The notes: generated from the sequence alone by a model not told the origin. Counted from the first letter of the stretch, positions 17,796 through 39,449 are shown. The stretch is DNA of 64,000 nucleotides from a bacterium (GCA_030647005.1 JAUSKG010000021.1:27105-91104), one strand, 5' to 3'. Numbers and translations: made by a program.

Positions 17796-17802
17796 ATTGT
17801 AA

Positions 17803-17895: not shown

Positions 17896-17901
17896 ATACG
17901 T

Positions 17902-18321
17902 ATGATGACCGACCCGATTGCTGACATGCTCACCCGGATCCGGAATGCACAGTCCGTTGGAAGGCCAACGGTGCAGCTTCCGGCGTCCAAGGTGAAGCGC
18001 GCCATTGCGGAGCTCCTCGCACGCGAGGGGTGGCTTGCCCGCGTGGACGTGCGCACGCCATCTACCGGGAAGCGTGGCGAGCAGTCACCGCATCACGAGC
18101 TCGTCCTCACGCTGCGCTACCGTCGGCCTGGAGAACCACAGATTCAGTCCATTCGTCGCATCTCACGGCCGGGTCATCGCGTCTACGTCAAGCATGGAGC
18201 GATCCCGACGGTGAAGCGTGGAGCTGGTATGGCAATCCTTTCCACCCCACAGGGGATTGTGACGAACCGTGAGGCGAAGGTCGCGGGTATCGGCGGCGAA
18301 CTCATTTGTGAACTGTACTGA
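17902..18321 (+). CDS. rpsH: 30S ribosomal protein S8
   Basis: MMTDPIADMLTRIRNA... Confidence 0.95.
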   Translation: MMTDPIADMLTRIRNAQSVGRPTVQLPASKVKRAIAELLAREGWLARVDVRTPSTGKRGEQSPHHELVLTLRYRRPGEPQIQSIRRISRPGHRVYVKHGAIPTVKRGAGMAILSTPQGIVTNREAKVAGIGGELICELY

Positions 18322-18368
18322 AGGAGCCCGTGTGCGTCGCCGTTCGTCAACCGTATACCCACCAACGT

Positions 18369-18917
18369 ATGAGTCGAATCGGGAAACAACCCATCCGCAT
18401 TCCGGACCAGGTCACCGTTACACGGGGAGATGGTCGTGCGGTCGTGCGTGGACCAAAGGGTGAAGTCCTCGTACCAATTCACCGCAACGTGATGGTGGAC
18501 GAGCAGGGAGGAGTGCTCACCGTCACCGTCGTGCGACCGAACGTCAAGGATGATCGCGCGCTCTGGGGGCTCACGACGCGACTCCTCACGAACGCGATCC
18601 TCGGTGTCACCGTTGGCTACACGAAGCGGCTTGAGGTTCATGGCGTTGGTTTTCGCGTGACGGCGAAGGGGAGTACACTCGAGTTCCTCCTTGGATACTC
18701 GCATCCAGTCCCCTTCGAGCTGCCGGACGGCGTGACGGCGACCATCGAGAAGAATACGGTGACCGTTTCCGGTATTGACAAGCAGCTCGTCGGCGAAGTC
18801 GCGGCGAAGATGCACGCGCTCCGGAAACCCGATGCGTACCACGGAAAGGGCGTGCGGTACTCTGGCGTGATCCTGAAGCTCAAGCCCGGGAAGGCCGCGA
18901 AGGGAGCCGGAGGGTAG
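18369..18917 (+). CDS. rplF: 50S ribosomal protein L6
   Basis: MSRIGKQPIRIPDQVTVT... Confidence 0.93.
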   Translation: MSRIGKQPIRIPDQVTVTRGDGRAVVRGPKGEVLVPIHRNVMVDEQGGVLTVTVVRPNVKDDRALWGLTTRLLTNAILGVTVGYTKRLEVHGVGFRVTAKGSTLEFLLGYSHPVPFELPDGVTATIEKNTVTVSGIDKQLVGEVAAKMHALRKPDAYHGKGVRYSGVILKLKPGKAAKGAGG

Positions 18918-18944
18918 GCGTTCACCATTTGTACACTGATACGT

Positions 18945-19310
18945 ATGTCCAAGCGTTTCATCATTCGCATGTCACCGCGAGCACGTCGCCACCGACGCGT
19001 GCGTGCGCGTATCATCGGTACCGCGCAGCGGCCGCGGCTTTCGGTTTTTCGTAGTGCGAAACACGTGTACGCGCAGCTCATTGACGATGCTGCCGGCCGC
19101 ACCGTTGCAGCCGCATCTGATAGCGATGTCTCCGTGAGCGATACCGCATCACGGAAGACCGCCATCGCGCATGCGGTCGGGGGTGTACTCGCGAAGCGTG
19201 CAGTGGCACTCGGGGTCTCTGCGGTGGTGTTCGATCGTGGCGGGTACACGTACCACGGCCGTGTGCAGGCAGTCGCAGACGGCGCGCGTGAGGGCGGTCT
19301 CACTCTGTAG
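18945..19310 (+). CDS. rplR: 50S ribosomal protein L18
   Basis: ...[20 protein letters not shown]... Confidence 0.93.
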
Positions 19311-19335
19311 GTGGCGTTGAGCACCAAATACAACG

Positions 19336-19908
19336 ATGCGTATGCCAGGAATAAAGGACAAGAAGACCGAGGCGCGACCGTCGGGAGCGCGTGGTCGCGG
19401 TGCCGCAGGGGGGCGGGGACGCCCCGATGGTCGCGGGCGCGGGCCACGTCGTGGTGAGCACGAGCGCGAGAAGGAGGAGTTCGAGCAGAAGATTCTCGAC
19501 CTCGCGCGCGTCACACGCGTGACGGCAGGCGGCAAGCGCATGCGTTTCCGTGCGTGCGTTTGCTTGGGTGACAAGAAGGGCCGCGTTGGTATCGGTGTCG
19601 CGAAGGGTGCCGATGTCTCCACCGCGATCTCGAAGGCGACCACGCGCGCGAAGCGGGAGATTATCACCGTGCCGATGGATCGCGAGACCATCCCCCATGA
19701 CATCGAGGTGAAGTTTAAGGCCGCGAAGGTCCTCATGAAGCCCGCACCGAAAGGGAGCGGCATCATTGCCGGTGGTGTGGTGCGGCTCGTCCTCGATCTC
19801 GCAGGCGTGTCGAACGTCTCCGCGAAAATGCTCGGATCATCGAACAAGGTATCCAATGCGAAGGCGACCATGCTCGCGCTCTCCTCGCTTCGTGCTCGCA
19901 CGCGTTGA
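19336..19908 (+). CDS. rpsE: 30S ribosomal protein S5 with RG-rich N-terminal extension
   Basis: S5 core (VTRVTAGGKRMRFRACV...GIGVAKGADV...); N-term RGRGAAGGRGRPDGRGRGPRRG. Confidence 0.93.
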   Translation: MRMPGIKDKKTEARPSGARGRGAAGGRGRPDGRGRGPRRGEHEREKEEFEQKILDLARVTRVTAGGKRMRFRACVCLGDKKGRVGIGVAKGADVSTAISKATTRAKREIITVPMDRETIPHDIEVKFKAAKVLMKPAPKGSGIIAGGVVRLVLDLAGVSNVSAKMLGSSNKVSNAKATMLALSSLRARTR

Positions 19909-19918
19909 GCTCCCACCT

Positions 19919-20368
19919 ATGTACTCCCTCCACACGCTCAAGCCATCTCCGAAGAGCACCCACACGACGAAGCGACTTGGTCGCGGTCATGGTTCTGGTC
20001 GCGGGAAGACCGCAGGGCGCGGCACGAAAGGACAGAAGGCCCGCAGCGGCGGTCGCGGCGGTCTCAAGCGACTCGGCATGCGTCCGATGCTCCTCCAACA
20101 GCCCAAGAAGCGCGGGTTCCGGAGTCCGCACGAGAAGTGCGCTTCGGTGAACATTGGTGATGTCGCCGCTGCGGTTGCCGCGGGGACAACCGTCACGCCA
20201 AAGATTCTCGTCGGTGTGCGGCTCATCGCGCACCGCCGTCACGGCGCGAAGGTACTCGGTGGTGGCACGTGCGACAAGCAGTTGGTCTTCAAAGGCCTCG
20301 AGGTCTCCGCGAGTGCAAAGGCGAAGATTGAAGCAGCGGGCGGTAGCGTCATCACGGAAACGCGTTGA
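19919..20368 (+). CDS. rplO: 50S ribosomal protein L15 (follows S5 directly; no L30 gene)
   Basis: MYSLHTLKPSPKSTHTTKRLGRGHGSGRGKTAGRGTKGQ. Confidence 0.93.
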   Translation: MYSLHTLKPSPKSTHTTKRLGRGHGSGRGKTAGRGTKGQKARSGGRGGLKRLGMRPMLLQQPKKRGFRSPHEKCASVNIGDVAAAVAAGTTVTPKILVGVRLIAHRRHGAKVLGGGTCDKQLVFKGLEVSASAKAKIEAAGGSVITETR

Positions 20369-20402
20369 GCACACGTCGGTGATGCCGACGCGTGCAGGAG
20401 TT

Positions 20403-21686
20403 ATGCTCGATACGCTCAAGACCATGTGGAAGGTGCGCGAGGTCAGGAACGCCATCCTGTTCGTCTTGGGCATGCTCGCCATTTTCCGATTCCTCGCGCA
20501 CATTCCGGTGCCCGGTGTTGATGTTGCAGCACTCGAGCAATTCTTCGCGTCGAGCGCAATCCTCGGACTCCTCAACGTCTTTTCCGGAGGCACCATGGAG
20601 AACTTCTCCATCGTCGCGTTGGGTGTAGCACCGTTCATCACCGCGTCCATCATCTTCCAGCTCCTCGGGATGGTCATTCCGGCGATCGAGGAACTCCAGA
20701 AGGAGGGCGAGTACGGTCGGCGGAAGATCAACCAGTACACGCGTCTCCTCTCCATCCCGCTCTCCATCATGCAGGGGTTTGGACTCATGACGCTCGTGCG
20801 CCAGTCCAATGCGGCAATCCTCCCGGACCTCAGCATCATGCAGACCGTCATGCTCCTCACGACGGTGACCGCGGGCACGGTATTCCTCATGTGGCTCGGC
20901 GAGCTCATCTCGGAGAAGAACGTCGGCAACGGCATTTCGCTCATGATTTTCGCTGGCATCATCTCGATACTCCCGCAGGCCGTCCAGCAGACGGCACTCA
21001 CGTTTGATGTTTCGCGGCTCGTACAGCTCCTCGTCTTCGTCATACTCGCGATCGTGACGATCATTGGCGTGGTCGCGCTCACCGAGGCACAGCGGAACAT
21101 CCCCGTCTCCTACGCGCGGCGCGTTCGCGGGATGCGCATGGTGGGGGGGTTGAACACGCACCTGCCATTGCGCGTGAACATGGCCGGTGTTATCCCCATC
21201 ATCTTCGCAATCTCCATCATCCTCTTCCCACCGCTCCTCGGGCAGTTCTTCATCCACGCGAAGACCGCGTGGATCGCGCGCGGTGCCGAGCTCATGATCA
21301 CCATCTTCCAGAACCAAGTGTTCTACGGCATCGCGTACTTTTCCCTCGTGTTCATCTTCACGTTCTTCTACACTGCCGTCGTGTTCCACCCACAGCAGAT
21401 TGCGGAGAATCTTCAGAAGCAGGGTGGTTTCATTCCAGGCATTCGGCCTGGCCGCGCGACAGCCGAGTATCTCCAGTTCGTGACGAATCGTATCATCTTC
21501 TTTGGCGCGGCATCCCTCGGTCTCATTGCCATCCTCCCGATCCTCACCCAGCCGCTCATCCCGGGCGCCGCGCAGCTCACGACGATCGTCGGCGGCACCT
21601 CACTCCTCATCATCGTCTCCGTCGTCATCGAGAGCGTGAAGCAGGTGGGGAGTCAGCTGACGATGCGCGAGTACGAGGGACTGTGA
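20403..21686 (+). CDS. secY: preprotein translocase SecY
   Basis: 10-TM protein downstream of L15 with SecY-typical pattern; start by first plausible ATG (alt. 20382). Confidence 0.93.
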   Translation: MLDTLKTMWKVREVRNAILFVLGMLAIFRFLAHIPVPGVDVAALEQFFASSAILGLLNVFSGGTMENFSIVALGVAPFITASIIFQLLGMVIPAIEELQKEGEYGRRKINQYTRLLSIPLSIMQGFGLMTLVRQSNAAILPDLSIMQTVMLLTTVTAGTVFLMWLGELISEKNVGNGISLMIFAGIISILPQAVQQTALTFDVSRLVQLLVFVILAIVTIIGVVALTEAQRNIPVSYARRVRGMRMVGGLNTHLPLRVNMAGVIPIIFAISIILFPPLLGQFFIHAKTAWIARGAELMITIFQNQVFYGIAYFSLVFIFTFFYTAVVFHPQQIAENLQKQGGFIPGIRPGRATAEYLQFVTNRIIFFGAASLGLIAILPILTQPLIPGAAQLTTIVGGTSLLIIVSVVIESVKQVGSQLTMREYEGL

Positions 21687-25914: not shown

Positions 25915-27285
25915 ATGCAAGAAACACTTCGCATCGTTGACGTGCCGCAGCAGGTTGGCACAGACGTGACCATTGCCGGTCGGGTCGCATCGCGGCGGGA
26001 CATGGGGAAGATCGTCTTCCTCGACGTTCGCGATCGGTACGGGCTTCTCCAGGTTGTCCTGACACCGGACGTCCCCGTCGAGGATCGCCACGCGCCCCAC
26101 CCGAGCGTTCCCGGGACACCGGTAACGCAGAAGGATGTGCGCGAGGGCTCCTACGTCCGCATCACCGGACGCGTGAAGCAGCGCGGTGAGAAGTACGTGA
26201 ACCCGAACATCGCGACGGGCACCGTGGAGATGGAGGCGGGTCAGATCACGATCATCGCCACATCGCAACCCTTCCCCTTCGATCCCCAGGACGATCTCCA
26301 CATCGACACGTACCTCGATCACCTCCCATTCACGCTCCGTACCGACCGCGGGCGCGCGATCTTCCGCGTGCAGGCCGCTATCGTCGAGGGCTTCCGAAGC
26401 GCGCTCACGAAGCGCGGCTTCACGGAGTTCCACGCGCCGAGCATCGTCGGCGGCTCCACGGAGGGCGGGGCGAACGTCTTCACCATTGACTACTTTGGCA
26501 AGCCCGCGTTCCTCGCGCAGTCCCCGCAGTTCTACAAGCAGATCATGGTCGGCATCTTCGAACGCGCCTTCACCGTCGCCACCGCGTTCCGCGCCGAGCT
26601 CCACGCGACGAGTCGTCACCTCAACGAGTACTGCTCGCTCGACTTTGAGTTTGGCCCCATCACCGACCACCGCGATGTCATGCGCATGCAGAACGACATG
26701 CTCATTGATCTCGTCGCACACGTGCGCGCGGTCTGTGCGGACGAGATCGCCGTGCTCGGTGCCACGCTGCCGGAGGTGCCACCGACCATCCCATCGCTCA
26801 AGCTCCGCGAGGCGCAGGAGGTGCTCAAACGCGAGTTCGGCATGGATTGCGTCGGCGAGCCGGACCTCGAGCCCGAGCACGAGCGCAAGCTCTGCGAGTG
26901 GTCCGCACGGGAGCACAGCTCGGACTTCCTCTACGTCACGCACTACCCCACAGCCAAGCGTCCGCTCTACACCATGCCCGACCCCGAGGACCCCGAGTTC
27001 ACACTCTCCTTTGATTTGCTCTTCCGCGGCGTCGAAATCACCACTGGCGGCCAGCGCATCCACGACTACGAAATGCTCAAAGGCAACATCGTGAAGTGGG
27101 GCCTCGATCCTGCTAAGTTCACCTACTACCTCGAGGCCTTCCAATACGGCATGCCCCCCGAAGGCGGCCTCGCCATCGGCCTCGAACGCCTCACCCAGAA
27201 GCTCCTCGGCCTCGACAACGTCAAACTCGCCACCCTCTTCCCGCGAGACATCGGGCGCATTGATGATCGGCTGTCGGCGGGATAG
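25915..27285 (+). CDS. class IIb aminoacyl-tRNA synthetase, archaeal-type AspRS or AsnRS (456 aa)
   Basis: QSPQFYKQ, FRAE (motif 2), GGLAIGLERL (motif 3), N-terminal OB fold; Asp vs Asn not resolvable by eye. Confidence 0.85.
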   Translation: MQETLRIVDVPQQVGTDVTIAGRVASRRDMGKIVFLDVRDRYGLLQVVLTPDVPVEDRHAPHPSVPGTPVTQKDVREGSYVRITGRVKQRGEKYVNPNIATGTVEMEAGQITIIATSQPFPFDPQDDLHIDTYLDHLPFTLRTDRGRAIFRVQAAIVEGFRSALTKRGFTEFHAPSIVGGSTEGGANVFTIDYFGKPAFLAQSPQFYKQIMVGIFERAFTVATAFRAELHATSRHLNEYCSLDFEFGPITDHRDVMRMQNDMLIDLVAHVRAVCADEIAVLGATLPEVPPTIPSLKLREAQEVLKREFGMDCVGEPDLEPEHERKLCEWSAREHSSDFLYVTHYPTAKRPLYTMPDPEDPEFTLSFDLLFRGVEITTGGQRIHDYEMLKGNIVKWGLDPAKFTYYLEAFQYGMPPEGGLAIGLERLTQKLLGLDNVKLATLFPRDIGRIDDRLSAG

Positions 27286-27317
27286 TGTGTTCGTTCAGGA
27301 GAACATGCAATCACTCT

Positions 27318-27938
27318 ATGGTTATTACTGATCCGCCATCAAACGAAGGGGTTATGGTTCAGCGTGGTTGGGGATGGGTGCTCGCGTCTAGCGATAACGT
27401 CCCTCACGATCCCAGTGAGCATTGTCCAACACGGGATGTGTTTACGGGTCGGTTAGATCATGCCCGCATTCTTCTCGAGCGAGCACCAAAATTTCAGATG
27501 ATAGCATCGGAGCTCATCGCTGCGGTCGGAGAGATTGGGAACAACACGTTTGATCACAACATTGGACAGTGGCGAGATGTTCCAGGGTGTTGGTTCGGGT
27601 GGATGCTTGGAGATGGACATTGGACAGCGGTGATCGCCGATCGCGGCCAGGGTATTCTTGCAACATTGCGTCGTATTCGGCCGGAGCTCCATGATGATAT
27701 GGAGGCGCTTCGTGTTGCGTTCCGCGAGGTGATTTCTGGACGATCTCCCGAGCAGCGGGGGAATGGATTGAAGTTTGTTGCATCCGTCATCGGGCAACGC
27801 GGGGATCGGCAGCTTGAATTTCATTCTGGAGCAGCACAAGTCGTTCTGACATCTCCTAGAAAAGGACGGCACGAGGAATGGTCTCCATCTGTACGGGTGC
27901 TCCCGGGAACCCTTGCCATCCTTTCGGTTATGGTGTAG
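27318..27938 (+). CDS. minimal GHKL-superfamily ATPase, RsbW/SpoIIAB (anti-sigma serine kinase)-like
   Basis: N-box EIGNNTFDH, G1 VIADRGQGI (DxGxG), G2 GRSPEQRGNGLKFV; gene lies at edge of low-GC island; start ATG 27318 (alt GTG 27285). Confidence 0.7.
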   Translation: MVITDPPSNEGVMVQRGWGWVLASSDNVPHDPSEHCPTRDVFTGRLDHARILLERAPKFQMIASELIAAVGEIGNNTFDHNIGQWRDVPGCWFGWMLGDGHWTAVIADRGQGILATLRRIRPELHDDMEALRVAFREVISGRSPEQRGNGLKFVASVIGQRGDRQLEFHSGAAQVVLTSPRKGRHEEWSPSVRVLPGTLAILSVMV

Positions 27939-27953
27939 TATTTTGGTACAACT

Positions 27954-28244
27954 ATGAGAATTGCATTGAGTAAATTTGGGCCCATGTTGGTCTCCCGTCC
28001 CGCAGGTCGTGATGCCCTGTTGATTGCTTCTGCATACCTTACGCCCGTATCGGAAACCGAGTCGATCGAGATCGATTTTACCGGCGTGCATGTACTCACT
28101 CCCTCATGGGCAGACGAGTTTGTTACCGGACTCCGTAAGAAATACGGAGATCGGCTCGTGTTGCTTCCCTCCGATAATGTTTCCGTAAAGCTTACCCTTG
28201 CAACGATCGGTCAATCTCCGAAAACCGGACCTGACGCGGTTTGA
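27954..28244 (+). CDS. small STAS-like protein, DUF4325-type (96 aa)
   Basis: ...SIEIDFTGVHVLTPSWADEFVTGL... pattern of the STAS-like DUF4325 family (assignment from memory, not searched); 16 nt after the ATPase. Confidence 0.6.
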   Translation: MRIALSKFGPMLVSRPAGRDALLIASAYLTPVSETESIEIDFTGVHVLTPSWADEFVTGLRKKYGDRLVLLPSDNVSVKLTLATIGQSPKTGPDAV

Positions 28245-28254
28245 CACGTTCTGT

Positions 28255-28360
28255 GGAAAAAATCGGACCTGACACGATTACCTCTCACCATCTCGTTTTC
28301 ATAGCCCTCCCACACACGGCTGGGCGTTAGAAAAAAATCGGACCTGACACGATTACCGTT
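28255..28360 (+). repeat. Two direct copies of gaaaaaatcggacctgacacgattacc (GACACGATT family)
   Basis: Exact 27-mer at ~28255 and ~28331. Confidence 0.7.
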
Positions 28361-28389
28361 TGCTCGTCGAGAATTTAAAATAGAAACGT

Positions 28390-28584
28390 ATGCTGGACCT
28401 CAAACGCACTCTACTTGCAAAGGAGTTATTTCTGGCTGCCATTATCTTCTATGCCATGGCATGGTTGATCGGAGGTATTTTTGGAGACGCGCTGAAGCTA
28501 ATAGGGTTCATTGCCCTGGCCATGGCAATTATTGCTGCGATTCGTGAAGTCAGGAGAGAGGCAGCAGACAAATCAAAAAAATAA
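28390..28584 (+). CDS. hypothetical 64-aa protein with two TM helices and charged C-terminus
   Basis: MLDLKRTLLAKELFLAAIIFYAMAWLIGGIF...IGFIALAMAIIAAIREVRREAADKSKK; low-GC island. Confidence 0.45.
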   Translation: MLDLKRTLLAKELFLAAIIFYAMAWLIGGIFGDALKLIGFIALAMAIIAAIREVRREAADKSKK

Positions 28585-28602
28585 GGTAAATATAGATAGG
28601 AT

Positions 28603-28836
28603 AATGGTAGGATAATGGTGTCAGGTCTGATTGTCCGTTAAAAAGCGGACCCGACACGATTACTCTTGGGCGGTGGCGGATGTGACGCCGTGATATGATG
28701 ACCGCATGAAACCGGCACAGAGCAACATCGCTCACCTCGACGGCGCGAACGGAACGGAAGGTGCGAGCGATGGGAAAAAGAATCAGACCTGACATCATCA
28801 TCCTTGCTTTCTTCCGCTTGACACCATTATCCTCCA
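28603..28836. mobile_element. ~230-bp GC-rich insert bounded by inverted repeats (aggataatggtgtcaggtctgatt ... aatcagacctgac ... ttgacaccattatcct)
   Basis: Inverted 13-16-mers read directly; internal segment ~62% GC inside ~35% GC surroundings. Confidence 0.4.
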
Positions 28837-28844
28837 CTAAAAAT

Positions 28845-29417
28845 ATGGATAAACTAGAAAATATTTTTATTGGTTTTAGAAATAGTTCATTTGATGAAAT
28901 AATCAAGTTAAATCTTAACCACACTATTTCAAACAAGGAAAAACTAATTTTTAGAACTATTTTTGAAAATTCTGCAAATTTAATTGCTTCGTTTATCAAA
29001 GAAATAAAAGCAAGTAAGTCAATAGAGGAAAAAGATTTTGACTGGATGATGCTACTTTATGTTTTTGTTTGTGTTCAAGAACTTCATGACATACTAGATC
29101 GGGTAGAGAAAACAGACGATGCTCATATAAAAAATACACTGGATGTTAATAAACAAGATTTGATAAATCATCTTAAGAAAATATTAGGTGGTAAAGATAT
29201 GGGTAGTGTTGTGGATAAAACGTTTAATCACATAGAATCTTCTGATAAGGAATCGGGTAATTACAATGAATTTGTTGTTGGAAGAACTTATGTAATTTTT
29301 AGTATGTTAAAAGAAAATCAAGTTAATATTGAAAATATGTCAAGTGAAAAATTACTACAAATTTCAGAAGAAAATTATAAAAATAGTATAGTAAATTTTG
29401 TAAAGATTTGTGTCTAG
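28845..29417 (+). CDS. hypothetical protein, very low GC (~28%), 190 aa
   Basis: ATG 28845 (track ORF starts 28761); Lys/Asn/Ile-rich; no recognisable domain. Confidence 0.5.
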   Translation: MDKLENIFIGFRNSSFDEIIKLNLNHTISNKEKLIFRTIFENSANLIASFIKEIKASKSIEEKDFDWMMLLYVFVCVQELHDILDRVEKTDDAHIKNTLDVNKQDLINHLKKILGGKDMGSVVDKTFNHIESSDKESGNYNEFVVGRTYVIFSMLKENQVNIENMSSEKLLQISEENYKNSIVNFVKICV

Positions 29418-29526
29418 TAAAGAGAGCAAGGTAGAAAAAGGGAAAAAGGAAAGGGGAGATAAAGAGAGATAAAGTGAAAAAATGGACTTGACCCCTTTCT
29501 TGTCTTTCTTGCATTTGCTGCTTTCT

Positions 29527-29583
29527 TGACACTATAAAATCGGACTTGACACGATTTCCGTGGACATGACACGATTTCCGACA
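29527..29583 (+). repeat. Three tandem GACACGATTTCC copies (GACACGATT family)
   Basis: aaaatcggacttgacacgatttccgtggacatgacacgatttccgacacgatttcc immediately upstream of ATG 29594. Confidence 0.7.
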
Positions 29584-29593
29584 CGATTTCCAT

Positions 29594-29899
29594 ATGTGGG
29601 AGGATCTCGACAAAAAAGAAAAAGGGGAAGTCGTGAATTTGGGACTGGCTATTTTGGTCGGCTTGCTTTTCTTGACATATTTTATTCGGGGCGTGAGAGA
29701 TGCTCCTCATGTAGCTGACTACCGTGAGCAATTCAGTGACTGTATGGAGGGTGCAAAGAATGGTCAGGAGCGCTATTTTTGTAAGGAGCATTTTGGTGAA
29801 CCAATGCTTTGGTTACAATTCAAGGAATGCAAGAAGGACCAAAAAAATAAAGTATGTAAAAAAATATTAAATGAACAGCTAATGGATCTTTACAAATAA
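29594..29899 (+). CDS. hypothetical 101-aa protein, N-terminal TM anchor, Cys-rich ectodomain
   Basis: VVNLGLAILVGLLFLTYFI then CMEGAKNGQERYFCKEHF...KECKKDQKNKVCKK. Confidence 0.5.
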   Translation: MWEDLDKKEKGEVVNLGLAILVGLLFLTYFIRGVRDAPHVADYREQFSDCMEGAKNGQERYFCKEHFGEPMLWLQFKECKKDQKNKVCKKILNEQLMDLYK

Positions 29900-29902
29900 T
29901 TT

Positions 29903-29965
29903 GCAGAAATCGTGTCAATGCAGAAATCGTGCGAAAAACCGTGTGCCAAATCGTGTCAGGTCTGC
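29903..29965 (-). repeat. Three inverted-orientation copies of the GACACGATT motif
   Basis: cagaaatcgtgtcaatgcagaaatcgtgcgaaaaaccgtgtgccaaatcgtgtcaggtctg. Confidence 0.65.
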
Positions 29966-29977
29966 TCTGTTAATAAA

Positions 29978-30110
29978 GGGGTCAAGTCCATTTCTTCGAT
30001 GATGACGGCTATAGGGAGCACGAGGTGATCGAGTGCACAGATAAAGGGGTCAAGTCCATTTATTTGACGATGACGGCTATAGGGAGCACGAGGTGATCGA
30101 GTTTGGCCCA
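29978..30110 (+). repeat. Two tandem ~68-bp units (ataaaggggtcaagtccattt...gatgacggctatagggagcacgaggtgatcgagt) plus partial third
   Basis: Near-identical units at 29978-30045 and 30046-30113. Confidence 0.7.
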
Positions 30111-30197
30111 TTTCCCTTTCATAGAGGGAATACGAAGTGATCCAGAGCACTGCTTGGGGGGGGGTAGAGAAGGGTTGATCGAACGCGGCGTGCCGTC

Positions 30198-30659
30198 TCA
30201 TTGCATCGAGCAGAGGGTTGAGAAATCCGAGACCGAGAGCTCCGGGATTGGCGATGTCGTAATGGCAGCGCAATGACGCTTGTCCCTCGTGAAGCGTGCG
30301 AGGTAGAAGGAGCAGCTCCCGCGCTCGCCGTCGTTTTGTTGCTGTGCACACGTTTGCACGGCGTTGGCAGCGTCATTGAGGTCGCAGCGTTCCTCGATAT
30401 CCGCTGGACATGGTGCGTTGACGCAGACAAGTTGGTGTTCCACAGCGCTGTAGGAGCCGTTGAGTTTTCGACACCACTCCTCGGTGCGGCCGGTGACCTC
30501 GTACTGTCGCGCTGCCTGGGCAGGATCATCTGGCCATGCGGCATCATATGCCGCTCGACGTTGATCATCCGCTGCACGCCGCGCAACTGCCATGACAACG
30601 ATCGCGACAACAAGCGCAGCAATGGCGAGGAGTGCGATAGTTTGGTTGCGACGCGACAT
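30198..30659 (-). CDS. hypothetical secreted/membrane-anchored Cys-rich protein (153 aa)
   Basis: N-terminal TM IALLAIAALVVAIVVMAV; 10 Cys; overlapping + ORFs judged spurious. Confidence 0.55.
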   Translation of the reverse strand: MSRRNQTIALLAIAALVVAIVVMAVARRAADDQRRAAYDAAWPDDPAQAARQYEVTGRTEEWCRKLNGSYSAVEHQLVCVNAPCPADIEERCDLNDAANAVQTCAQQQNDGERGSCSFYLARFTRDKRHCAAITTSPIPELSVSDFSTLCSMQ

Positions 30660-30732
30660 ACGAGCTGGTGAGGGCCGATGCTTGAGTTTAGTTTCTTATC
30701 CCGTTCAGTATAGCACGAAAATCGAAGGTGGA

Positions 30733-30822
30733 TAAAGGGGTCAAGTCCATTTCTTTGACGATGGCGGCTATAGGGAGCACGAGGTGATCCAGTGAAAAAT
30801 GGACTTGACCCCTTTCTCCTTT
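30733..30822. mobile_element. MITE-like ~90-bp element with perfect 19-bp terminal inverted repeats (aaaggggtcaagtccattt / aaatggacttgacccctttc)
   Basis: Same internal sequence as the 29978 tandem units; solo right-end copies at ~29468-29496 and ~30823-30850. Confidence 0.6.
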
Positions 30823-30917
30823 CTTTCCGACATTGACCCCTTTCTTTCCGACAGCATCTGGACGCGGTGCTGCTCGTGTGCCATACTGCATGGAGGTCTT
30901 TAGACAAGGAGGAGCTC

Positions 30918-31154
30918 GTGGGAAGAATGATGTACAGGGTGCTTGGTATCTCGGGCGCGATGCTTTCGCTCGCGCATGCTGATCCCGGACTCGTGGCTGC
31001 GGATCCCCATATGAGGGTCAGTCCGGCGAGCCAGTGGATGTTCTTCGCCCTCCTCGTCGCAGTGCTGGCCTTCGTCGCGTTCGTCGAGTACGTTTGCGAA
31101 CGTCTCTCGTACTGGTGGGCGGGTCGCAGTCGCGCAGGCCATCGCCAGGCGTGA
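30918..31154 (+). CDS. small membrane protein upstream of P-type ATPase (signal peptide + TM)
   Basis: SD aaggagga then GTG 30918/ATG 30927; MMYRVLGISGAMLSLAHA...FFALLVAVLAFVAFVEYV. Confidence 0.45.
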   Translation: MGRMMYRVLGISGAMLSLAHADPGLVAADPHMRVSPASQWMFFALLVAVLAFVAFVEYVCERLSYWWAGRSRAGHRQA

Positions 31155-31226
31155 GCAACATCGCGCAGCACCCCGCTCCTCATCGGAGTGGGGTTTTTCG
31201 TTGTGGGTTTGGTACGATAGAGGACT

Positions 31227-33812
31227 ATGGAGGCAAAACAACAAACCCTGAACGATGTCCTCGCGGCACTCGGTACGGATGGGAGCGGCCTCACCGAGGG
31301 CGAGGTCATTCGTCGTCGGCAGCGATTTGGGTGCAACGTGCTGTCGGAGCGCGCGCGGCCGGGTGCGCTCGCGCACGCGGTTCATGAGCTCAAGAACCCC
31401 ATTCTCATCGTGCTCGCGGTAGCGGCGATTGCCGCGATCGCGTTCGGCGAGCGGGTGGATGGTCTCTTCATCCTCGCCACACTCGTGATCACCGCGGGGT
31501 TTGGTATGGTCATGGCACTCCGTGCGGAGCGCGCGCTCGATGCACTCCGGGGATTCCTCCACCCGAAGGCGATCGTGGTGCGGGGTGGTCACGAGGTCGC
31601 GGTGGACACGGAGGAGCTCGTGCCGGGCGACCTTCTCCTCCTGCGGCGCGGGATGCGCATTCCCGCGGACGCGCGCACCATCGAGGCGCGATCGCTCGAG
31701 GTGGATGAATCCATGCTCACGGGAGAGAGTGTGCCGGTACAGAAGACGACACTCGGCGGAACAGGGGAGCACGAGACACTCTCCCAGGGCACCCTCGTGG
31801 TTGAGGGGCAGGGCGTTGCGGTGGTGACGGCGATCGGGGCGGAGACGACATTCGCGAGTATTGCCGCATCGCTCACCGAGGAGCGCGAGCGCACGCCGCT
31901 CCAGGAGCAGCTTGCACAGTTCGCCCGCGTCGTCGCCATCGTCGTGACGGTCGCGGCGGTGACGCTCTCCGCCATCGGCATCGCGCGGGGGCTCGATGCA
32001 GGTGAGATGCTCGCGACGGCGATCGCGGTCGCAGTTGCCGCGGTGCCCGAGGGCCTCGCGGTTGCCATCACCGCCATTCTCGCGGTGGGGACCGTCCGCC
32101 TCGCGCGCAAGCAGTGCCTCGTGCGACGCATCATCGCGGCTGAGACGCTGGGGTCGGTCACCATCATCCTCACGGATAAGACAGGGACGCTCACCGAGGG
32201 TCGCATGCGCACCGTGGCGGTTCACCTCGTGGACGGCGGCGTGGGCGAGGTGCGCGTAGAACCCGGCATGGCGTGCGTCGAGGCGTGCGAGCGCATGATG
32301 GTCGCTGCGGCGATCGGCACCGAGGTGTCCATCGCAAACCCTGAGGCCGCGCCATCGGACTGGGAGTATTTGGGGTCTTCCACCGAGGCCGCACTCGTCA
32401 GTGCCGCAGGTACGGCGGGGGTTGATGTGTTGCGCACGCGCGCGGCGACGACCATCCTCGATCGCCTCCCGTTCTCCGTCGAGCGGAAGTACTCGGCAAC
32501 ATTGATCCAGCGCGCGAGCACGGAGCTCATCATATTGGGCGCGCCAGAGTACGTCACCCACGCACCGCTCCCGCAGCGCATCCTCGAGGAGCTCGACGTG
32601 CGTGCGCGCGAGGGCTTCCGCATCGTCGCGGCTGCGGGCACGCCGGTGTCCAAAAAAATGACGCGCATCGCGGACCTCGGTGACGATCTCGTGGACGGCG
32701 CAGTGCTCCTCGGCCTCTTCTTCATCCGCGATCCGCTTCGGCAAGATGCTGCCCGTGCGATTGCCGCGGCGCAGCAAGCGGGCGTGCGGACGATCATGGT
32801 GACTGGAGATCACCCCGCCACCGCGAAGCGTATTGCCGAGGACGCAGGCCTTGCGGCCGGTGAGCCGGTCGTCATGACCGGCACAGAGCTCGAGGGGCTC
32901 TCCGATACGGCACTCCACGAGCGCATCGCATCGGTGGATATCTTCGCGCGGACGTCGCACGCGCAGAAGGCGCGGCTCGTTGCCGCCTGGCGTGCGCGTG
33001 GCGAGGCGGTCGCGGTGACCGGCGACGGTGTGAACGATGCTCCAGCACTCGCGGCGGCGGACATCGGCATCGCGATGGGGTCGGGCACGGATGTCTCCCG
33101 CGAAGCGGCGGACCTCGTCCTCCTCGACAACAAGTACGAGACCATCGTCGAGGGTATCCGTGGCGGGCGCGCGATGTGGGACAATATCCGGAAGACGGCG
33201 AACTACCTCCTCATCTCCGGCTTCACCGAGCTCCTCCTCGTGGGCGTGTCCGTCTTCACCGGTTTGCCGCTCCTCATACTCCCCGCGCAGATCCTCTGGG
33301 TGAATCTCCTGGAGGACACCCTGCCGGCGGCGGCGCTCGCGTTTGAGCCACCCGAGTCCGGCATCATGGACGAGCCGCCGCGCAAGCGATCCGCGTCGCT
33401 CTTTGATCCCGAGATGCGCGCGTTCGTGTTCGGCGTGGGCCTGGTGACCGACATCTTCCTCATCGGCGCAGGGTTCGCGCTCTACCACATCACCGGTGAC
33501 CTCGATCTCACGCGCACGATTGTCTTTGGTGCACTCGCCGCGAATTCCCTCTTCGTCATCTTCGCGGTTCGGTCGCGTCGTCGCCCGATCTGGCGCACGC
33601 GTCCCTGGGAGAACCCCGCGCTCCTCATCGCGATTGCCATTGCGATTGCACTCCTTCTCTTTGGGCTCCTCGCGCCTGCGGTTCGGCCGCTCTTGCGTAC
33701 GGTGCATATTCCCCTTTGGGGGTGGGGTATCATCATCGGCCTCAGCGTCGTAAACCTCGTTGCCGTGGAGGCAGTGAAAGCAGTATTCCGTATGCGTCGC
33801 TCTCCCGTATGA
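31227..33812 (+). CDS. cation-transporting P-type ATPase (P2-type, Ca2+/Mg2+-like)
   Basis: DKTGTLT phosphorylation site, TGDHPATA, GDGVNDAPALAAADIGIAMG, N-terminal cation-ATPase domain. Confidence 0.93.
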   Translation: MEAKQQTLNDVLAALGTDGSGLTEGEVIRRRQRFGCNVLSERARPGALAHAVHELKNPILIVLAVAAIAAIAFGERVDGLFILATLVITAGFGMVMALRAERALDALRGFLHPKAIVVRGGHEVAVDTEELVPGDLLLLRRGMRIPADARTIEARSLEVDESMLTGESVPVQKTTLGGTGEHETLSQGTLVVEGQGVAVVTAIGAETTFASIAASLTEERERTPLQEQLAQFARVVAIVVTVAAVTLSAIGIARGLDAGEMLATAIAVAVAAVPEGLAVAITAILAVGTVRLARKQCLVRRIIAAETLGSVTIILTDKTGTLTEGRMRTVAVHLVDGGVGEVRVEPGMACVEACERMMVAAAIGTEVSIANPEAAPSDWEYLGSSTEAALVSAAGTAGVDVLRTRAATTILDRLPFSVERKYSATLIQRASTELIILGAPEYVTHAPLPQRILEELDVRAREGFRIVAAAGTPVSKKMTRIADLGDDLVDGAVLLGLFFIRDPLRQDAARAIAAAQQAGVRTIMVTGDHPATAKRIAEDAGLAAGEPVVMTGTELEGLSDTALHERIASVDIFARTSHAQKARLVAAWRARGEAVAVTGDGVNDAPALAAADIGIAMGSGTDVSREAADLVLLDNKYETIVEGIRGGRAMWDNIRKTANYLLISGFTELLLVGVSVFTGLPLLILPAQILWVNLLEDTLPAAALAFEPPESGIMDEPPRKRSASLFDPEMRAFVFGVGLVTDIFLIGAGFALYHITGDLDLTRTIVFGALAANSLFVIFAVRSRRRPIWRTRPWENPALLIAIAIAIALLLFGLLAPAVRPLLRTVHIPLWGWGIIIGLSVVNLVAVEAVKAVFRMRRSPV

Positions 33813-34303
33813 ATCACCCCAATCCCTACGCGTGCATTGTGGCCAAGCTCGAACGTGCAGGTGTGACGTTCAAGCAGCACGAGCACGCGCCGGTGCGCAC
33901 CTCGCAGGAGGCCGCAACGATCCGTGGTACGAGCATTGAAGAAGGTGCGAAGGCACTCGTGTGTCATGTGGATAAGTCACGCTACGTGCTCGCGGTGCTC
34001 TCCGCCGCGTTCCAGGCGGACCTCCCCGCCCTCCGGCGGAAGCTCGGGGCGAAGAAGCTCGCACTCGCGTCGCCAGAGGAGGTGCTGCGGGAGACGGGGT
34101 GCGAGGTGGGTGGCGTGCCACCGTTCGGTTCGTGTATCGGTCTCATGACGTACTGTGACCCCTCACTCCGCGCGCACGAGCATATCTCCTTCAACGCCGG
34201 CCTCCGGACGCACTCCATCGTCATGCGTTTTGTGGATTACCTCGCCATTGAACAGCCCACCGTCACTCCATTCGCCAAACAGGTGCCTGGCGCGGTACAA
34301 TAG
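33809..34303 (+). CDS. YbaK/ProX-family aminoacyl-tRNA deacylase
   Basis: ...ETGCEVGGVPPFG... signature of YbaK/ProX editing domain; ATGA overlap with ATPase stop. Confidence 0.8.
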   Translation: MNHPNPYACIVAKLERAGVTFKQHEHAPVRTSQEAATIRGTSIEEGAKALVCHVDKSRYVLAVLSAAFQADLPALRRKLGAKKLALASPEEVLRETGCEVGGVPPFGSCIGLMTYCDPSLRAHEHISFNAGLRTHSIVMRFVDYLAIEQPTVTPFAKQVPGAVQ

Positions 34304-34327
34304 AGTCCAGTTCTTCTCCCACCATCT

Positions 34328-34921
34328 ATGATCTCCAAACGTCTTCTCAATCACCTCGATAAGCGGGGTATCGCCTATGCGGTTGTGCCGCACCGGAAGG
34401 TCTTCACCGCGTTTGATCTGGCGCAGACCTTGGATGCGGATCCCAAGCACGTCGCGAAGACCGTCCTCGTCCGCGCGGATCGTGACCTCGTGCTCGTGAG
34501 TGTTCCGGCACACAGTCGGTTGGACTTCGCGCGGATGAAGAAGGTGCTCGGCGCGAAGCAGGTGACGCTCGCGTCGGAGCGGGCGATGGAGCAGCTGAAG
34601 ATCAAGGAGGGGACGACACCACCGTTCGCATCGTTCTTCAAGATCGCCTGCGTGCTCGACAGCGGATTGGCGAAGTGCAAGACGATGCTCTGCCGATCTG
34701 GCAGTCACACGGAATCGCTCGACTGCTCCGTTGCGAACTACATTGCGAGCGAGGAACCGACGATTGCGAAAGTGAGCGAGCGCGCGAAGCGAGCACCGGC
34801 GAAGCGGCGTGCGCCTGTAAAAGCGAAGCGTGCACCGGCGAAAGCGAAGCGGACGACCGCGAAGCGTCCCACGAAGCGGAAGGCGGTCCGCAGGAAGCCC
34901 GCAGCGCGGAAGCGGTCGTAG
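34328..34921 (+). CDS. divergent YbaK/ProX-like deacylase with C-terminal Lys/Arg/Ala-rich (KAKRAPA-repeat) tail
   Basis: Parallel architecture to 33809..34303 (…IKEGTTPPFASFF…), then RAKRAPAKRRAPVKAKRAPAKAKRTTAKRPTKRKAVRRKPAARKRS. Confidence 0.65.
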   Translation: MISKRLLNHLDKRGIAYAVVPHRKVFTAFDLAQTLDADPKHVAKTVLVRADRDLVLVSVPAHSRLDFARMKKVLGAKQVTLASERAMEQLKIKEGTTPPFASFFKIACVLDSGLAKCKTMLCRSGSHTESLDCSVANYIASEEPTIAKVSERAKRAPAKRRAPVKAKRAPAKAKRTTAKRPTKRKAVRRKPAARKRS

Positions 34922-34933: not shown

Positions 34934-35641
34934 ATGCGCCCCGCGCTCCAGCCATTCGACGGGCCGCTCGACCTCCTCCTGCGCCTCATTGAGCAGGAGG
35001 AGCTCGACATCACCACCGTGGCGCTCGCTGGGGTGTGCGAGTCGTACCTCGCGCACCTCAAGCAGGTGGAGCAACGGACGCCGGAAGCCGTGGCGGATTT
35101 CCTCGTCATTGCGGCGAAGCTCCTCTACCTCAAGTCGCTCGTCCTCCTGCCCGAGGCGGAGGGCGACGCGGAGGAGGACGAGACGGGACTCGCGGCGCAG
35201 CTCCGCATCTACCGCGCGTTCGCGGAGGCGGCAACGGGTATCGCCGAGCAGTTCAGCGTGTCTCCACGGATGCACCCGAGCGCGCGGGTGCCGGTGATCG
35301 TACCATCATTTCTCCCGCCGAAGCGCGTTGACCTCGCAATGCTCGGGCAGGTCATGGTGCACCTCATCGCGGAGCTCGAGCCCATCGTGCGGATCCCGAA
35401 GGCGACGATCGGTCGCACCATCTCCATTGAGGATCGCATTGCAGAGTTGCGGGCGCTCGTCGCGGCGCGTTCCCGCGTGACACTCCACGACGTGCTCCGC
35501 GGGCGAACGGGACGTCGGGAACAGATCGTCTCGTTCCTCGCGGTTCTTGAGCTCGTCCGGCAGCAGGAGGTTGTCGCAATCCAGTCCTCGCAGTTCTCCC
35601 CGATTGCCATCGAGCGTTCCTCGGATGGACGCTCGCGTTGA
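34934..35641 (+). CDS. scpA: segregation and condensation protein A
   Basis: MRPALQPFDGPLDLLLRLIEQEELDITTVALAGVCESYL... Confidence 0.85.
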   Translation: MRPALQPFDGPLDLLLRLIEQEELDITTVALAGVCESYLAHLKQVEQRTPEAVADFLVIAAKLLYLKSLVLLPEAEGDAEEDETGLAAQLRIYRAFAEAATGIAEQFSVSPRMHPSARVPVIVPSFLPPKRVDLAMLGQVMVHLIAELEPIVRIPKATIGRTISIEDRIAELRALVAARSRVTLHDVLRGRTGRREQIVSFLAVLELVRQQEVVAIQSSQFSPIAIERSSDGRSR

Positions 35642-35643
35642 AC

Positions 35644-36258
35644 ATGGCCATAGCTATGTCGAAAGATACCGCACCCACCATTGACCTCCACCGCGCGCTC
35701 GAGACCATCCTCTTCCTGTCCGGCAAGCCGCTCACGATGAAGAAGATCGCGGTGCTCCTCGGGAGCGATCTCCAGACCGCACGGGATGCCGTCGCTGCGT
35801 TCCAGACGACATGGAATGCGCGCGGCGGTGGAACGATGGTCGCGGCGACGGAGGAGCAAGTGCAGCTCGTCTCCCACCCGGATTGCCAGGCCATCGCGGA
35901 GACGATAGCGAGCGACGAGGTGCGCGGTGAGCTCACCCGTCCGCAGCTCGAAGCGCTCACGGTCGTCGCGTACCGCGGCCCGATCACGAAGGCGGAGCTC
36001 GAGCACATCCGCGGTGTCCACTGCGGACTCATCATCCGAAACCTCCTCATGCGCGGACTCATCGTGAGCGCGCGCGATCGCGCACGTGGCGAGGATATCT
36101 TCACGGTGTCGATGGATTTCCTCCGTCACCTCGGCATCGCGGATCTCCGCGAGCTCACGGACTACGAGCGGCTCCACAACGACGCGATCATCCGCGAGTA
36201 CCTCGCCATGGCGCACGGCGAGGAGGGCGGTGAAGTGGTCGCGGCACCGCCGGTCTGA
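35644..36258 (+). CDS. scpB: segregation and condensation protein B
   Basis: ScpB winged-helix pattern; follows scpA with overlap. Confidence 0.85.
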   Translation: MAIAMSKDTAPTIDLHRALETILFLSGKPLTMKKIAVLLGSDLQTARDAVAAFQTTWNARGGGTMVAATEEQVQLVSHPDCQAIAETIASDEVRGELTRPQLEALTVVAYRGPITKAELEHIRGVHCGLIIRNLLMRGLIVSARDRARGEDIFTVSMDFLRHLGIADLRELTDYERLHNDAIIREYLAMAHGEEGGEVVAAPPV

Positions 36259-36454: not shown

Positions 36455-37390
36455 ATGGGTCTCTTCTTCGCCATTCTCTTTGTCGCATTCAGCTCCTGGA
36501 GTGCGCATCCGGCGCTCGCAGAGCCCCTGTCCGTAGGACCTGCTCCTGCGATCGTTGCGACGAGCCCACGCATCCCGACGCGGATCGCGGCGGCGAACGG
36601 CGAGCCGGAGGAACTGGGCCCGGTGCTCACCGCGCAGAGTGCGGCGGTGCTCGATGCGGACTCCGGCGTGCTCCTCTGGGGCAAGCAGCCGTACGCGGTG
36701 CGCCCGCTCGCGAGTATCACGAAGCTCCTCACGGCGATCGCGTACGTCGAGGTACGCGACGATCGCGACGGCGTGTCGCAGGTACAGATCGTCGCTGACG
36801 ACATTCCAGAGGAAGGGAACACCATCGTGGAGTCGGACGACATCTTTGCGGTGCACGACCTCCTGGCTGCGATGCTCATCCGTTCCGACAACGGCGCGGC
36901 GCGTGCGCTCGCGCGGAGCGACGGCGCGTTGGTGTCCGGCGATGCGCAGGAACGCACCGCGCGACGGCTTGGCCTCCGGTCGGTGCGCGTCACCGATCCC
37001 GCAGGCCTTCGCTCCGACAACCGCGGTACCGCAGTGGATGCCGCGCGCCTACTCGCTGCTGCGCTCGCGGAGGACCCCCTCCGATCGCTGCTCGCGACCG
37101 CACGGACCACCGTTGACGCGCATCGCGATGGTCGTCGCGCGTTGCCAATCGTCACGACGAACGCGCTCCTCACGGACGGCCGCGAGCACTCCTATACGCT
37201 CATCGGCGGAAAGACCGGCTACCTCGACGAGGCGGGGTACAATTTTGTCATCGAGGTGGAGCGCGATGGCGCGACGATCGTCGTCGCGGTGCTCGGTGCC
37301 GCGACGCACCTCGATCGGTTTCGCGACGTCGGCGTGCTCGCGGACTGGATTTTTCAACATTTCGACTGGTCGGAAGCACAGCCCGGGTAG
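36455..37390 (+). CDS. dacA: D-alanyl-D-alanine carboxypeptidase (PBP5-like serine peptidase)
   Basis: signal peptide; SITKLLT (SxxK) motif. Confidence 0.85.
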   Translation: MGLFFAILFVAFSSWSAHPALAEPLSVGPAPAIVATSPRIPTRIAAANGEPEELGPVLTAQSAAVLDADSGVLLWGKQPYAVRPLASITKLLTAIAYVEVRDDRDGVSQVQIVADDIPEEGNTIVESDDIFAVHDLLAAMLIRSDNGAARALARSDGALVSGDAQERTARRLGLRSVRVTDPAGLRSDNRGTAVDAARLLAAALAEDPLRSLLATARTTVDAHRDGRRALPIVTTNALLTDGREHSYTLIGGKTGYLDEAGYNFVIEVERDGATIVVAVLGAATHLDRFRDVGVLADWIFQHFDWSEAQPG

Positions 37391-38433: not shown

Positions 38434-38507
38434 AGCGGGGTGGAGCAGTTTGGCAGCTCGCCAGGCCCATAACCTGGAGGTCGTCGGTTCAAATCCGACC
38501 CCCGCCA
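38434..38507 (+). tRNA. initiator tRNA-Met (CAT); no encoded CCA
   Basis: Acceptor, D and T arms nearly identical to E. coli tRNA-fMet (GCGGGGTGGAGCAG...GGTCGTCGGTTCAAATCCG); 1:72 A-C mismatch; anticodon loop cCCATAA. Confidence 0.85.
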
Positions 38508-38584: not shown

Positions 38585-38656
38585 GGCGGGGTAGCTCAGT
38601 GGTAGAGCAGCGGACTCATAAGCCGTTGGTCGCGGGTTCAACCCCCGCCCCCGCTA
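38585..38656 (+). tRNA. tRNA with CAT anticodon (elongator Met or lysidine-dependent Ile)
   Basis: ggcgggg acceptor, D-arm tagctcagtggtagagca, loop ctCATaa, T-arm gcgggttcaaccccc. Confidence 0.8.
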
Positions 38657-39365: not shown

Positions 39366-39449
39366 TGCCGCGGGAGGGGATCGAACCCTCATGACCTTGC
39401 GGCCACAGGAGTTTGAGTCCTGCGCGTCTGCCGGTTCCGCCACCGCGGC
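39366..39449 (-). tRNA. tRNA-Leu (CAA), type II with long variable arm
   Basis: Reverse complement: gccgcggtggcggaaccggcagacgcgcaggactCAAactcctgtggccgcaaggtcatgagggttcgatcccctcccgcggca. Confidence 0.85.

Follow-up and report, generated by a model that had tools for sequence, protein, structure and literature searches.

Free-standing editing domains of the INS (YbaK/ProX) superfamily have been described as single-domain proteins without RNA-binding modules, which contact only the acceptor end of their tRNA substrates (PMC11295145). All characterised deacylases of the superfamily share a conserved Lys and a GXXXP loop (PMC11286415), and several INS sub-families are still without a known substrate. 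Terminal extensions accompany INS trans-editing enzymes in plant ProXp-ala, whose C-terminal domain raises both tRNA binding and deacylation (PMC9425024), and in the N-terminal domain of Trypanosoma brucei MCP3 (PMC11286415), whilst the disordered N-terminal domain appended to eukaryotic LysRS binds tRNA (PMC6213541). Here we describe two neighbouring genes, gene 1 and gene 2, in a 64,000-nt stretch of a Patescibacteria-type metagenome-assembled genome (MAG) (GCA_030647005.1, JAUSKG010000021.1:27105-91104; the whole stretch is hereafter the window, 61% GC, with positions counted from its first letter). Gene 2 joins an INS-type editing domain to a polybasic C-terminal tail. On balance, and with modest confidence, we read gene 2 as coding for an active aminoacyl-tRNA deacylase whose appended tail would bind tRNA non-specifically, and gene 1 as coding for an adjoining YeaK-type deacylase. 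The two genes are made up as follows.

33809..34303, plus strand: gene 1, untailed tRNA_edit protein of 164 aa, YeaK/ProXp-ST1-like (Pfam PF04073, YeaK match, AlphaFold2, Foldseek)
34328..34783, plus strand: gene 2 catalytic domain, residues 1-152, lpg1207/3OP6-like INS-superfamily fold (Pfam PF04073, clade profile, AlphaFold2, Foldseek)
34784..34921, plus strand: gene 2 polybasic C-terminal tail, residues 153-197, plus stop codon (sequence; predicted coil)
34784..34851, no strand assigned: degenerate 21-nt tandem repeat in the tail, encoding an AKRAPAK-like heptapeptide (Tandem Repeats Finder: period 21, 3.4 copies, 72% matches)

The initial annotation had placed two YbaK-type open reading frames (ORFs) at 33809-34921, and these coordinates proved exact. 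Both ORFs matched Pfam PF04073 (tRNA_edit; cut-off 25.5 bits), gene 1 with 99 bits (E 2.7e-28) and gene 2 with 75.7 bits (E 4.2e-21), and the whole gene 2 protein had no other Pfam match at E 1 or better. The motifs quoted for them were also present, GCEVGGVPPFG as residues 97-107 of gene 1 and KEGTTPPFASFF as residues 93-104 of gene 2. With 26% identity (E 3e-12) the two proteins are homologous, and their clade profiles aligned with an hhalign probability of 100%. AlphaFold2 models, built with homolog alignments, gave predicted local distance difference test (pLDDT) values of 95-98 for residues 1-152 of gene 2 and a mean of 93 for gene 1, with the same order of helices and strands in each. 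Foldseek returned YbaK-fold matches for both models (3OP6, 2DXA, 1DBU, 2CX5, 1WDV and 1VKI; E ~1e-11 to 1e-14), with target-normalised template modelling (TM) scores of 0.8-0.9 against the standalone single-domain structures; for gene 2 the scores to 2DXA, 3OP6, 2CX5, 1DBU and 1WDV were 0.81-0.89. Structure prediction thus places the second ORF, for which the initial annotation had named a missing YbaK fold as the decisive objection, firmly within that fold.

The catalytic features were found in both proteins. Gene 1 carries Lys48 and the GXXXP loop G101-G-V-P-P105, with K48, G101, P104 and P105 invariant across 31 homologs. In the 42-member clade alignment of gene 2, His22 and Lys44 were invariant and G95 was kept at 90% or more; the GXXXP loop reads G95-T-T-P-P99, and at least 90% of the 13 closest homologs have P99. 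By Pfam domain, fold, Lys and GXXXP loop, both genes belong to the INS superfamily. Invariance or near-invariance of the Lys and the loop in both clades speaks for selection on catalysis.

Placement within the superfamily put the two genes on separate branches. Gene 1 and E. coli YeaK had 39% identity over 152 residues (E 8e-33); the RefSeq name of YeaK is 'mischarged aminoacyl-tRNA deacylase', and its family, ProXp-ST1, hydrolyses Ser- and Thr-tRNAs (PMC11295145). The two share the motifs GAKALVC, TGC-x-x-G-x-PPF and FNAG, and both are single-domain, tail-free proteins of similar length; unlike YeaK, gene 1 lies in a Patescibacteria-type MAG between a P-type ATPase and another editing-domain gene, and its activity is a prediction. 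The profile of gene 1 homologs scored YeaK highest (135 bits), followed by 3OP6 (110), YbaK (76) and the Abu/Ala-tRNA deacylase ProXp-x (2CX5, 64). In a neighbour-joining (NJ) tree of 132 domains, midpoint-rooted and without bootstrap, gene 1 fell within an 11-member clade that includes YeaK. We therefore class gene 1 as a putative YeaK/ProXp-ST1-like deacylase, which corrects the annotation of this neighbouring gene.

Gene 2, by comparison, reached only 21% identity to YeaK (E 5e-4), falling outside ProXp-ST1/YeaK, and sat within a separate 44-member clade of the same unbootstrapped tree. Its clade profile found Legionella pneumophila lpg1207 (3OP6) as the best solved structure (152 bits, E 2.5e-43), with lower scores for E. 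coli YbaK (70 bits), ProXp-x (2CX5, 53) and ProXp-ala (47-52). Gene 2 and lpg1207 have the same fold and share the AKT-V/L, LPA and GxxPPFG motifs, but lpg1207 is 152 aa long, has no basic tail and lies outside the tail-bearing NJ clade. The two may belong to one of the sequence-similarity-network clusters ProXp-ST2, ProXp-8 or ProXp-9 (Kuzmishin Nagy et al. 2020, as cited in PMC11295145), the last two being named but uncharacterised.

Both genes resemble YbaK (Cys-tRNAPro/Cys deacylase; 1DBU, 2DXA) in fold, conserved Lys and GXXXP loop, yet neither is YbaK in the strict sense, as both scored far below the equivalog cut-offs of TIGR00011 (63.4 bits for gene 1 and 39.1 for gene 2, against 153.25) and NF007951 (37.8 and 21.6 bits, against 243). 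Two further assignments were tried and rejected. Structures of the Ala-tRNAPro deacylase ProXp-ala (5VXB, 1VJF, 1VKI and 8HUZ) scored 20-52 bits with the clade profiles of both genes, against 113-152 for 3OP6; the 'Ala-tRNA(Pro) deacylase' labels carried by some JGI homologs are automatic names. The ProXp-x structure 2CX5 came below 3OP6 and YbaK with both profiles (53 bits for gene 2, 64 for gene 1). Comparison of subtypes and catalytic residues, which the initial annotation had left to such an alignment, therefore found the Lys in both proteins and a ProXp-ST1-like gene 1, whilst neither gene was YbaK sensu stricto or ProXp-ala. Outside the window, gene 1 was ~50% identical to proteins on multi-megabase contigs and to a Chloroflexi MAG protein, and Patescibacteria proteins showed 34-67% identity to gene 2. 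The two genes are thus old, distinct branches of the INS superfamily and not the products of a fresh local duplication. Separately, three polypeptides collected in the searches, P0143 (448 aa), P0174 (491 aa) and P0176 (303 aa), held two or three consecutive 3OP6/YeaK-like tRNA_edit domains without basic tails; fused arrays of editing domains are not among the INS-superfamily architectures described in a review (PMC11295145).

The tail of gene 2 comprises its last 45 residues, AKRAPAKRRAPVKAKRAPAKAKRTTAKRPTKRKAVRRKPAARKRS (DNA 34784-34918), and is composed of 11 K, 11 R, 11 A and 5 P without any D or E, giving a net charge of +22. It is shorter than the ~55 residues first proposed, and is both real and evolutionarily maintained. 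AlphaFold2 modelled residues 153-197 as coil without secondary structure (pLDDT ~70-82). The 'histone-H1-like' label given to it is apt for its composition, K/R/A/P-rich and acid-free like Chlamydia Hc1/Hc2-type H1-like proteins, and the resemblance is compositional only: the window tail alone matched no Pfam family at E 0.01 or better, and the linker-histone, HC1 and HC2 profiles did not recognise it. Within the clade, Pfam HC2 was matched by 1/42 members (E 2.8e-4) and, separately and faintly, by the protein P0259. The broader suggestion that the tail is of a nucleic-acid-binding kind agrees with its predicted character, being polybasic, free of acidic residues and kept across the clade.

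Basic C-termini of this sort are not a compositional habit of these genomes. Among the 61 ORFs of the window supported by codon-usage scoring, ribosomal protein L2 alone had a comparably basic C-terminus, and at one fixed threshold such a terminus occurred in 15/42 target ORFs of the related loci compared to 3/357 of the ORFs flanking them. All close gene 2 homologs ended in a K/R-rich stretch that differed in length and sequence, with the frame open in every case. We further searched 1.84 billion cluster representatives exhaustively with the gene 2 domain, which gave 306 proteins with E values of 1e-10 or below; among the best matches, most were 160-260 aa long with a basic C-terminal extension. 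When representatives were sorted by profile preference, 87/155 gene-2-like proteins carried a basic extension (80 C-terminal, 7 N-terminal), compared to 0/123 gene-1-like proteins.

The same trend was apparent in related loci, where 83 gene-2-type ORFs were scored, 80 of them drawn from GTDB species representatives and the others from Logan contigs. The GTDB scan was seeded with 13 closer sequences through a single peptide pattern, TA[YF]DLA[QT]TL, and so samples part of the clade only. The stretch following the fold had a median length of 27 aa (range 0 to 78 aa, and up to 229 aa elsewhere), with a net charge of at least +3 in 76/83 and at least +10 in 47/83. Pooled over these loci, from genomes of 28-66% GC, tail composition was 41% K, 14% A, 8.5% R and 0.8% D+E. 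Judged by this distribution, the tail is an evolutionarily maintained trait of the whole gene 2 clade. Composition is kept, sequence is not and either terminus can carry the extension, which points to an electrostatic, sequence-independent function. Nineteen of the 83 tails began with a K[LIM]KLQ motif (L019, L021, L031, L032, L043, L045, L048, L054, L055 and others), and several of these continued as regular, amphipathic-helical-looking KKAKKxxKKVVKK patterns, unlike the proline-rich tail of the window. The tails may not all work alike.

Record titles of gene-2-type sequences were overwhelmingly those of Patescibacteria (Uhr-, Kerfeld-, Falkow- and Veblenbacteria, Parcubacteria), many others bearing placeholder-like labels, and a few tail-bearing members came from other MAGs, e.g. 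Omnitrophica and Acidobacteriota. Many GTDB records titled 'uncultured Gammaproteobacteria bacterium isolate binchicken_...' (L015, L017, L019, L023, L026, L028, L029 and others) had the gene order aspS-X-gene 2-scpA-scpB, X being an ORF described below, as in Patescibacteria MAGs; their organism labels look like placeholders or misassignments.

From the conserved fold and catalytic residues we infer that gene 2 is a deacylase. Lys44 and the G95-xxx-P99 loop of its globular domain would hold the aminoacyl ester at A76 in place for its hydrolysis, as they do in characterised relatives. The acid-free tail, predicted to be disordered and with a charge of +22, would serve as an appended, sequence-non-specific tRNA-binding arm, raising the aminoacyl-tRNA affinity of an enzyme that would otherwise touch the acceptor end only, and because such an arm is non-specific the enzyme would probably have broad tRNA specificity. 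The case for a tRNA arm draws on the three precedents introduced above (PMC11295145, PMC9425024, PMC6213541), and the seven N-terminal extensions among the representatives fit a position-independent electrostatic role. These precedents are partial. The extensions of plant ProXp-ala and T. brucei MCP3 are folded or helical dimerisation domains of eukaryotic proteins, whereas that of gene 2 is a low-complexity polybasic tail on a bacterial protein from a different branch. The N-terminal domain of human LysRS (PMC6213541) is closer in kind, a disordered basic add-on with non-specific tRNA affinity to which the gene 2 tail may be likened by analogy, although such lysine-rich or disordered extensions occur on eukaryotic synthetases and not on editing factors, and share no sequence homology with the tail.

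The tail-bearing form is the standard version of the enzyme in Patescibacteria, encoded directly upstream of scpA-scpB. The enzymes of gene 1 and gene 2 would likely clear different, possibly overlapping, sets of mischarged tRNAs. Their descent from different INS branches makes different substrates plausible, and to that extent the proposal that the two genes serve different mischarged tRNAs holds; its more specific part, deacylation of Cys/Ala/Ser-tRNAPro, gains no specific support, because the YbaK cut-off was not reached and ProXp-ala was closest to neither gene.

Several points weigh against this reading of gene 2. The nearest solved relative, lpg1207, was deposited as uncharacterised, and a deacylase role for the gene 2 clade is predicted by homology. 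Polybasic tails bind polyanions of any kind, DNA, rRNA and acidic lipids among them. The tail's pLDDT of ~70-82 is not below 50, so that complete disorder is not demonstrated by the model, and substrate specificity is not readable from sequence. By genome context, gene 2 is tied most strongly to scpA-scpB, which are chromosome-condensation and not translation genes, and its association with the aspartyl-tRNA synthetase (AspRS) gene is looser, at a median gap of 1.1 kb.

The surroundings of the two genes in the window are the following.

25915..27285, plus strand: non-discriminating AspRS (aspartate-tRNA(Asn) ligase; NCBIfam NF003483, 469 bits against a 353-bit cut-off)
31227..33812, plus strand: P-type cation ATPase (Pfam E1-E2_ATPase and related domains), its stop overlapping the gene 1 start
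34934..35641, plus strand: scpA (Pfam SMC_ScpA, E 7.6e-21), 12 nt downstream of gene 2
35638..36258, plus strand: scpB (Pfam SMC_ScpB, E 1.7e-32), overlapping the scpA end
36455..37390, plus strand: S11 D-Ala-D-Ala carboxy/endopeptidase (NCBIfam D-alanyl-D-alanine endopeptidase, E 3e-24), part of a conserved downstream block

The ATPase, gene 1, gene 2, scpA and scpB form a run of five closely spaced genes. The ATG of gene 1 (33809) overlaps the TGA stop of the ATPase as ATGA, and the full gene 2 ORF (34328-34921, 197 aa) is co-directional with gene 1. A consensus scan found one weak promoter-like site, within the 3'-terminal part of gene 1 (34272-34301), and no terminator-like site from the end of the ATPase gene to the scpA coding region, the nearest downstream one lying inside scpA (35287-35304); nothing in this promoter and terminator scan rose above chance levels. 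An Rfam scan of the window returned four tRNAs only, with no RNA element close to gene 1 or gene 2.

Across the related loci, scpA was downstream of and co-directional with the gene-2-type gene in 81/~82 cases and directly adjoined it wherever a gap could be measured (79 loci; median 17 nt, at most 50 nt in 52). scpB was downstream in 79 loci and the S11 D-Ala-D-Ala peptidase in 60. A class IIb synthetase, which in the window is the non-discriminating AspRS, lay upstream and co-directional in 64/82 loci, within 800 nt in 30 of them. An ORF of ~100 aa, here termed X, stood between the synthetase and gene 2, directly upstream of the latter, in 41/82 loci (e.g. L002:3664-3969, L087:4505-4813 and L012:3691-3993; conserved Q7, E49, T64, W68, G79 and Q90). 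X had no Pfam match, its PDB matches were only non-significant ones of the winged helix-turn-helix type (MarR, WRN RQC; E ~1), and a tblastn search did not find it in the window. The ancestral order in Patescibacteria, as reconstructed from these loci, is aspS(ND)-X-gene 2-scpA-scpB-dac, ND denoting the non-discriminating enzyme. The window lacks X, and its aspS is separated from gene 2 by a low-GC island, the ATPase and gene 1. The strongest contextual signal at this locus, which the initial annotation had missed, is the deep conservation of the gene 2-scpA-scpB order, with gene 2 at its head.

The pairing of gene 1 with gene 2 was far rarer. All 80 GTDB loci were free of a second tRNA_edit ORF within 4 kb, the adjacency being restricted to this sub-lineage. 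In the closest relatives sharing the inserted ATPase, the slot before scpA was filled by four combinations: gene 1 with gene 2 (the window and L088), gene 1 with X and no gene 2 (L087), X with gene 2 (L002), and gene 2 alone (L003, L006). Such variable combinations are compatible with partly overlapping functions. The P-type ATPase was present in only five of the related loci retrieved through gene 2 (L002, L003, L006, L014, L017), and also in the gene 1 locus L087.

Position before scpA did not always coincide with the presence of a tail. Two tailed members were found outside the scpAB context: P0259 (L090:4001-5140), with a 229-residue basic tail and beside a gene for a spermine-synthase/major facilitator superfamily fusion, and P0017 (L004:3611-4231), flanked by methyltransferase and histidine phosphatase genes in an Omnitrophica MAG. 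Members nearly without a tail (1-5 terminal basic residues) still preceded scpA. Tail and operon position are thus separable, and the tailed members away from scpAB indicate that the tail goes with the enzyme and not with the operon.

These observations bear directly on the alternative that survives best, in which the gene 2 product associates with the nucleoid and acts together with the SMC-ScpAB condensin, its H1-like tail binding DNA and its YbaK-fold domain repurposed or moonlighting, e.g. as an interaction or regulatory module. The conserved operon is what would be expected of such a partner (81/~82 loci, with its short median gap and scpB in 79), X, with its non-significant matches of the winged helix-turn-helix type, precedes gene 2 in 41 loci, and the tail is similar in composition to bacterial H1-like DNA-binding tails, as seen in the weak HC2 matches of one clade member and P0259. 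However, a purely structural role would not lead one to expect Lys44, His22 and the GXXXP loop to be invariant or nearly so, tail-bearing members exist outside any scpAB context, members ending in 1-5 basic residues keep their place before scpA, and the close relative L087 has scpAB after gene 1 and X, without gene 2. In other bacteria, moreover, scpAB is co-operonic with unrelated housekeeping genes. We consider this alternative unlikely. A related proposal, in which gene 2 is a dedicated and possibly catalytic SMC-ScpAB partner in Patescibacteria, nucleoid-bound via its H1-like tail and co-expressed or co-functional with ScpA and ScpB, is likewise doubtful in our estimation; if true, it would tie chromosome organisation to a fold known from tRNA proofreading.

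A second alternative keeps the enzyme and changes the target of its tail, which would tether the deacylase to the ribosome through rRNA, or to another translation component, for proofreading near the site of aminoacyl-tRNA use. The enzyme residues are conserved, the tail is composed like the basic extensions of ribosomal proteins (L2 having the only other such C-terminus in the window), and its length and sequence vary widely, as binding to an rRNA surface would predict. No ribosomal genes were found among the conserved families in the ±4 kb flanks, however, and such tethering is computationally indistinguishable from direct tRNA binding; we regard it as improbable.

The origin first proposed for the pair, a canonical copy and a diverged duplicate subfunctionalised in place, would require local tandem duplication of one YbaK/ProX gene, de novo gain of the tail and specialisation on Cys/Ala/Ser-tRNAPro. 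The genes are adjacent, co-directional and homologous, and a bacterial-type tRNA-Pro (C1:G72, A73) is encoded in the window. Against this, recent duplication is ruled out by the 26% identity, the separate family placements and the lack of tandems elsewhere (0/80 GTDB loci); each gene has far closer relatives outside the window, gene 1 being YeaK-like and gene 2 part of a separate, old tail-bearing clade whose tail long predates this genome, and neither gene reached the YbaK equivalog cut-off or was closest to ProXp-ala. This origin is very improbable. That the tail is neutral low-complexity sequence from repeat slippage, or an ORF-calling artefact, is scarcely credible, since for all its degenerate 21-nt repeat and highly variable length (0-78 aa in the loci, up to 229 aa elsewhere), its charge and exclusion of acidic residues are kept across genomes of 28-66% GC and many lineages, it is enriched relative to neighbouring genes (15/42 versus 3/357) and absent from 123 gene-1-like proteins, and the frame is open and in register in all homologs.

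Other features of the window were also recorded. The non-discriminating AspRS is of archaeal type and implies, as far as its family assignment goes, an indirect Asn-tRNA pathway; gene 2 may police the product of this neighbouring enzyme, e.g. Asp-tRNAAsn escaping transamidation. Between it and the P-type ATPase lies the low-GC island (27300-31200), with GC as low as 29% against 61%, whose ORFs 27285-27938, 28761-29417 and 30198-30659 (minus strand) had no Pfam match; it may be inserted foreign DNA. The tRNA-Pro(GGG) gene at 8-83 carries the C1:G72 and A73 identity elements of bacteria, and its CCA end is encoded in the genome. Downstream of the operon are two tRNA-Met genes (38434-38507 and 38585-38656) and a tRNA-Leu(CAA) gene (39366-39449, minus strand). 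A translation gene cluster spans 6387-21686, comprising ORFs of 695 and 385 aa (the sizes of EF-G and EF-Tu) followed by a series of short ORFs whose layout resembles that of an S10/spc ribosomal-protein operon and ending with a 427-aa ORF of SecY size; L2 (12846-13688) alone was confirmed by Pfam, the other identities following from size and order.

A literature search found no basic tails on bacterial INS-family editing factors, no such proteins in Patescibacteria and no association of YbaK with scpAB. The components of gene 2, an editing domain and a polybasic appendage, are of kinds already known; the gene 2 clade, mostly from Patescibacteria MAGs and with a polybasic tail before scpA-scpB, is a previously undescribed group. 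Where free-standing INS domains have been described as lacking RNA-binding modules, this clade offers a natural experiment in how a minimal deacylase gains tRNA affinity, and gene 2 is a candidate for a proofreading factor of broad specificity in organisms whose genomes are very reduced. Its position before scpAB provides an unexpected, as yet unexplained and testable genomic link between a translation-fidelity fold and condensin genes.

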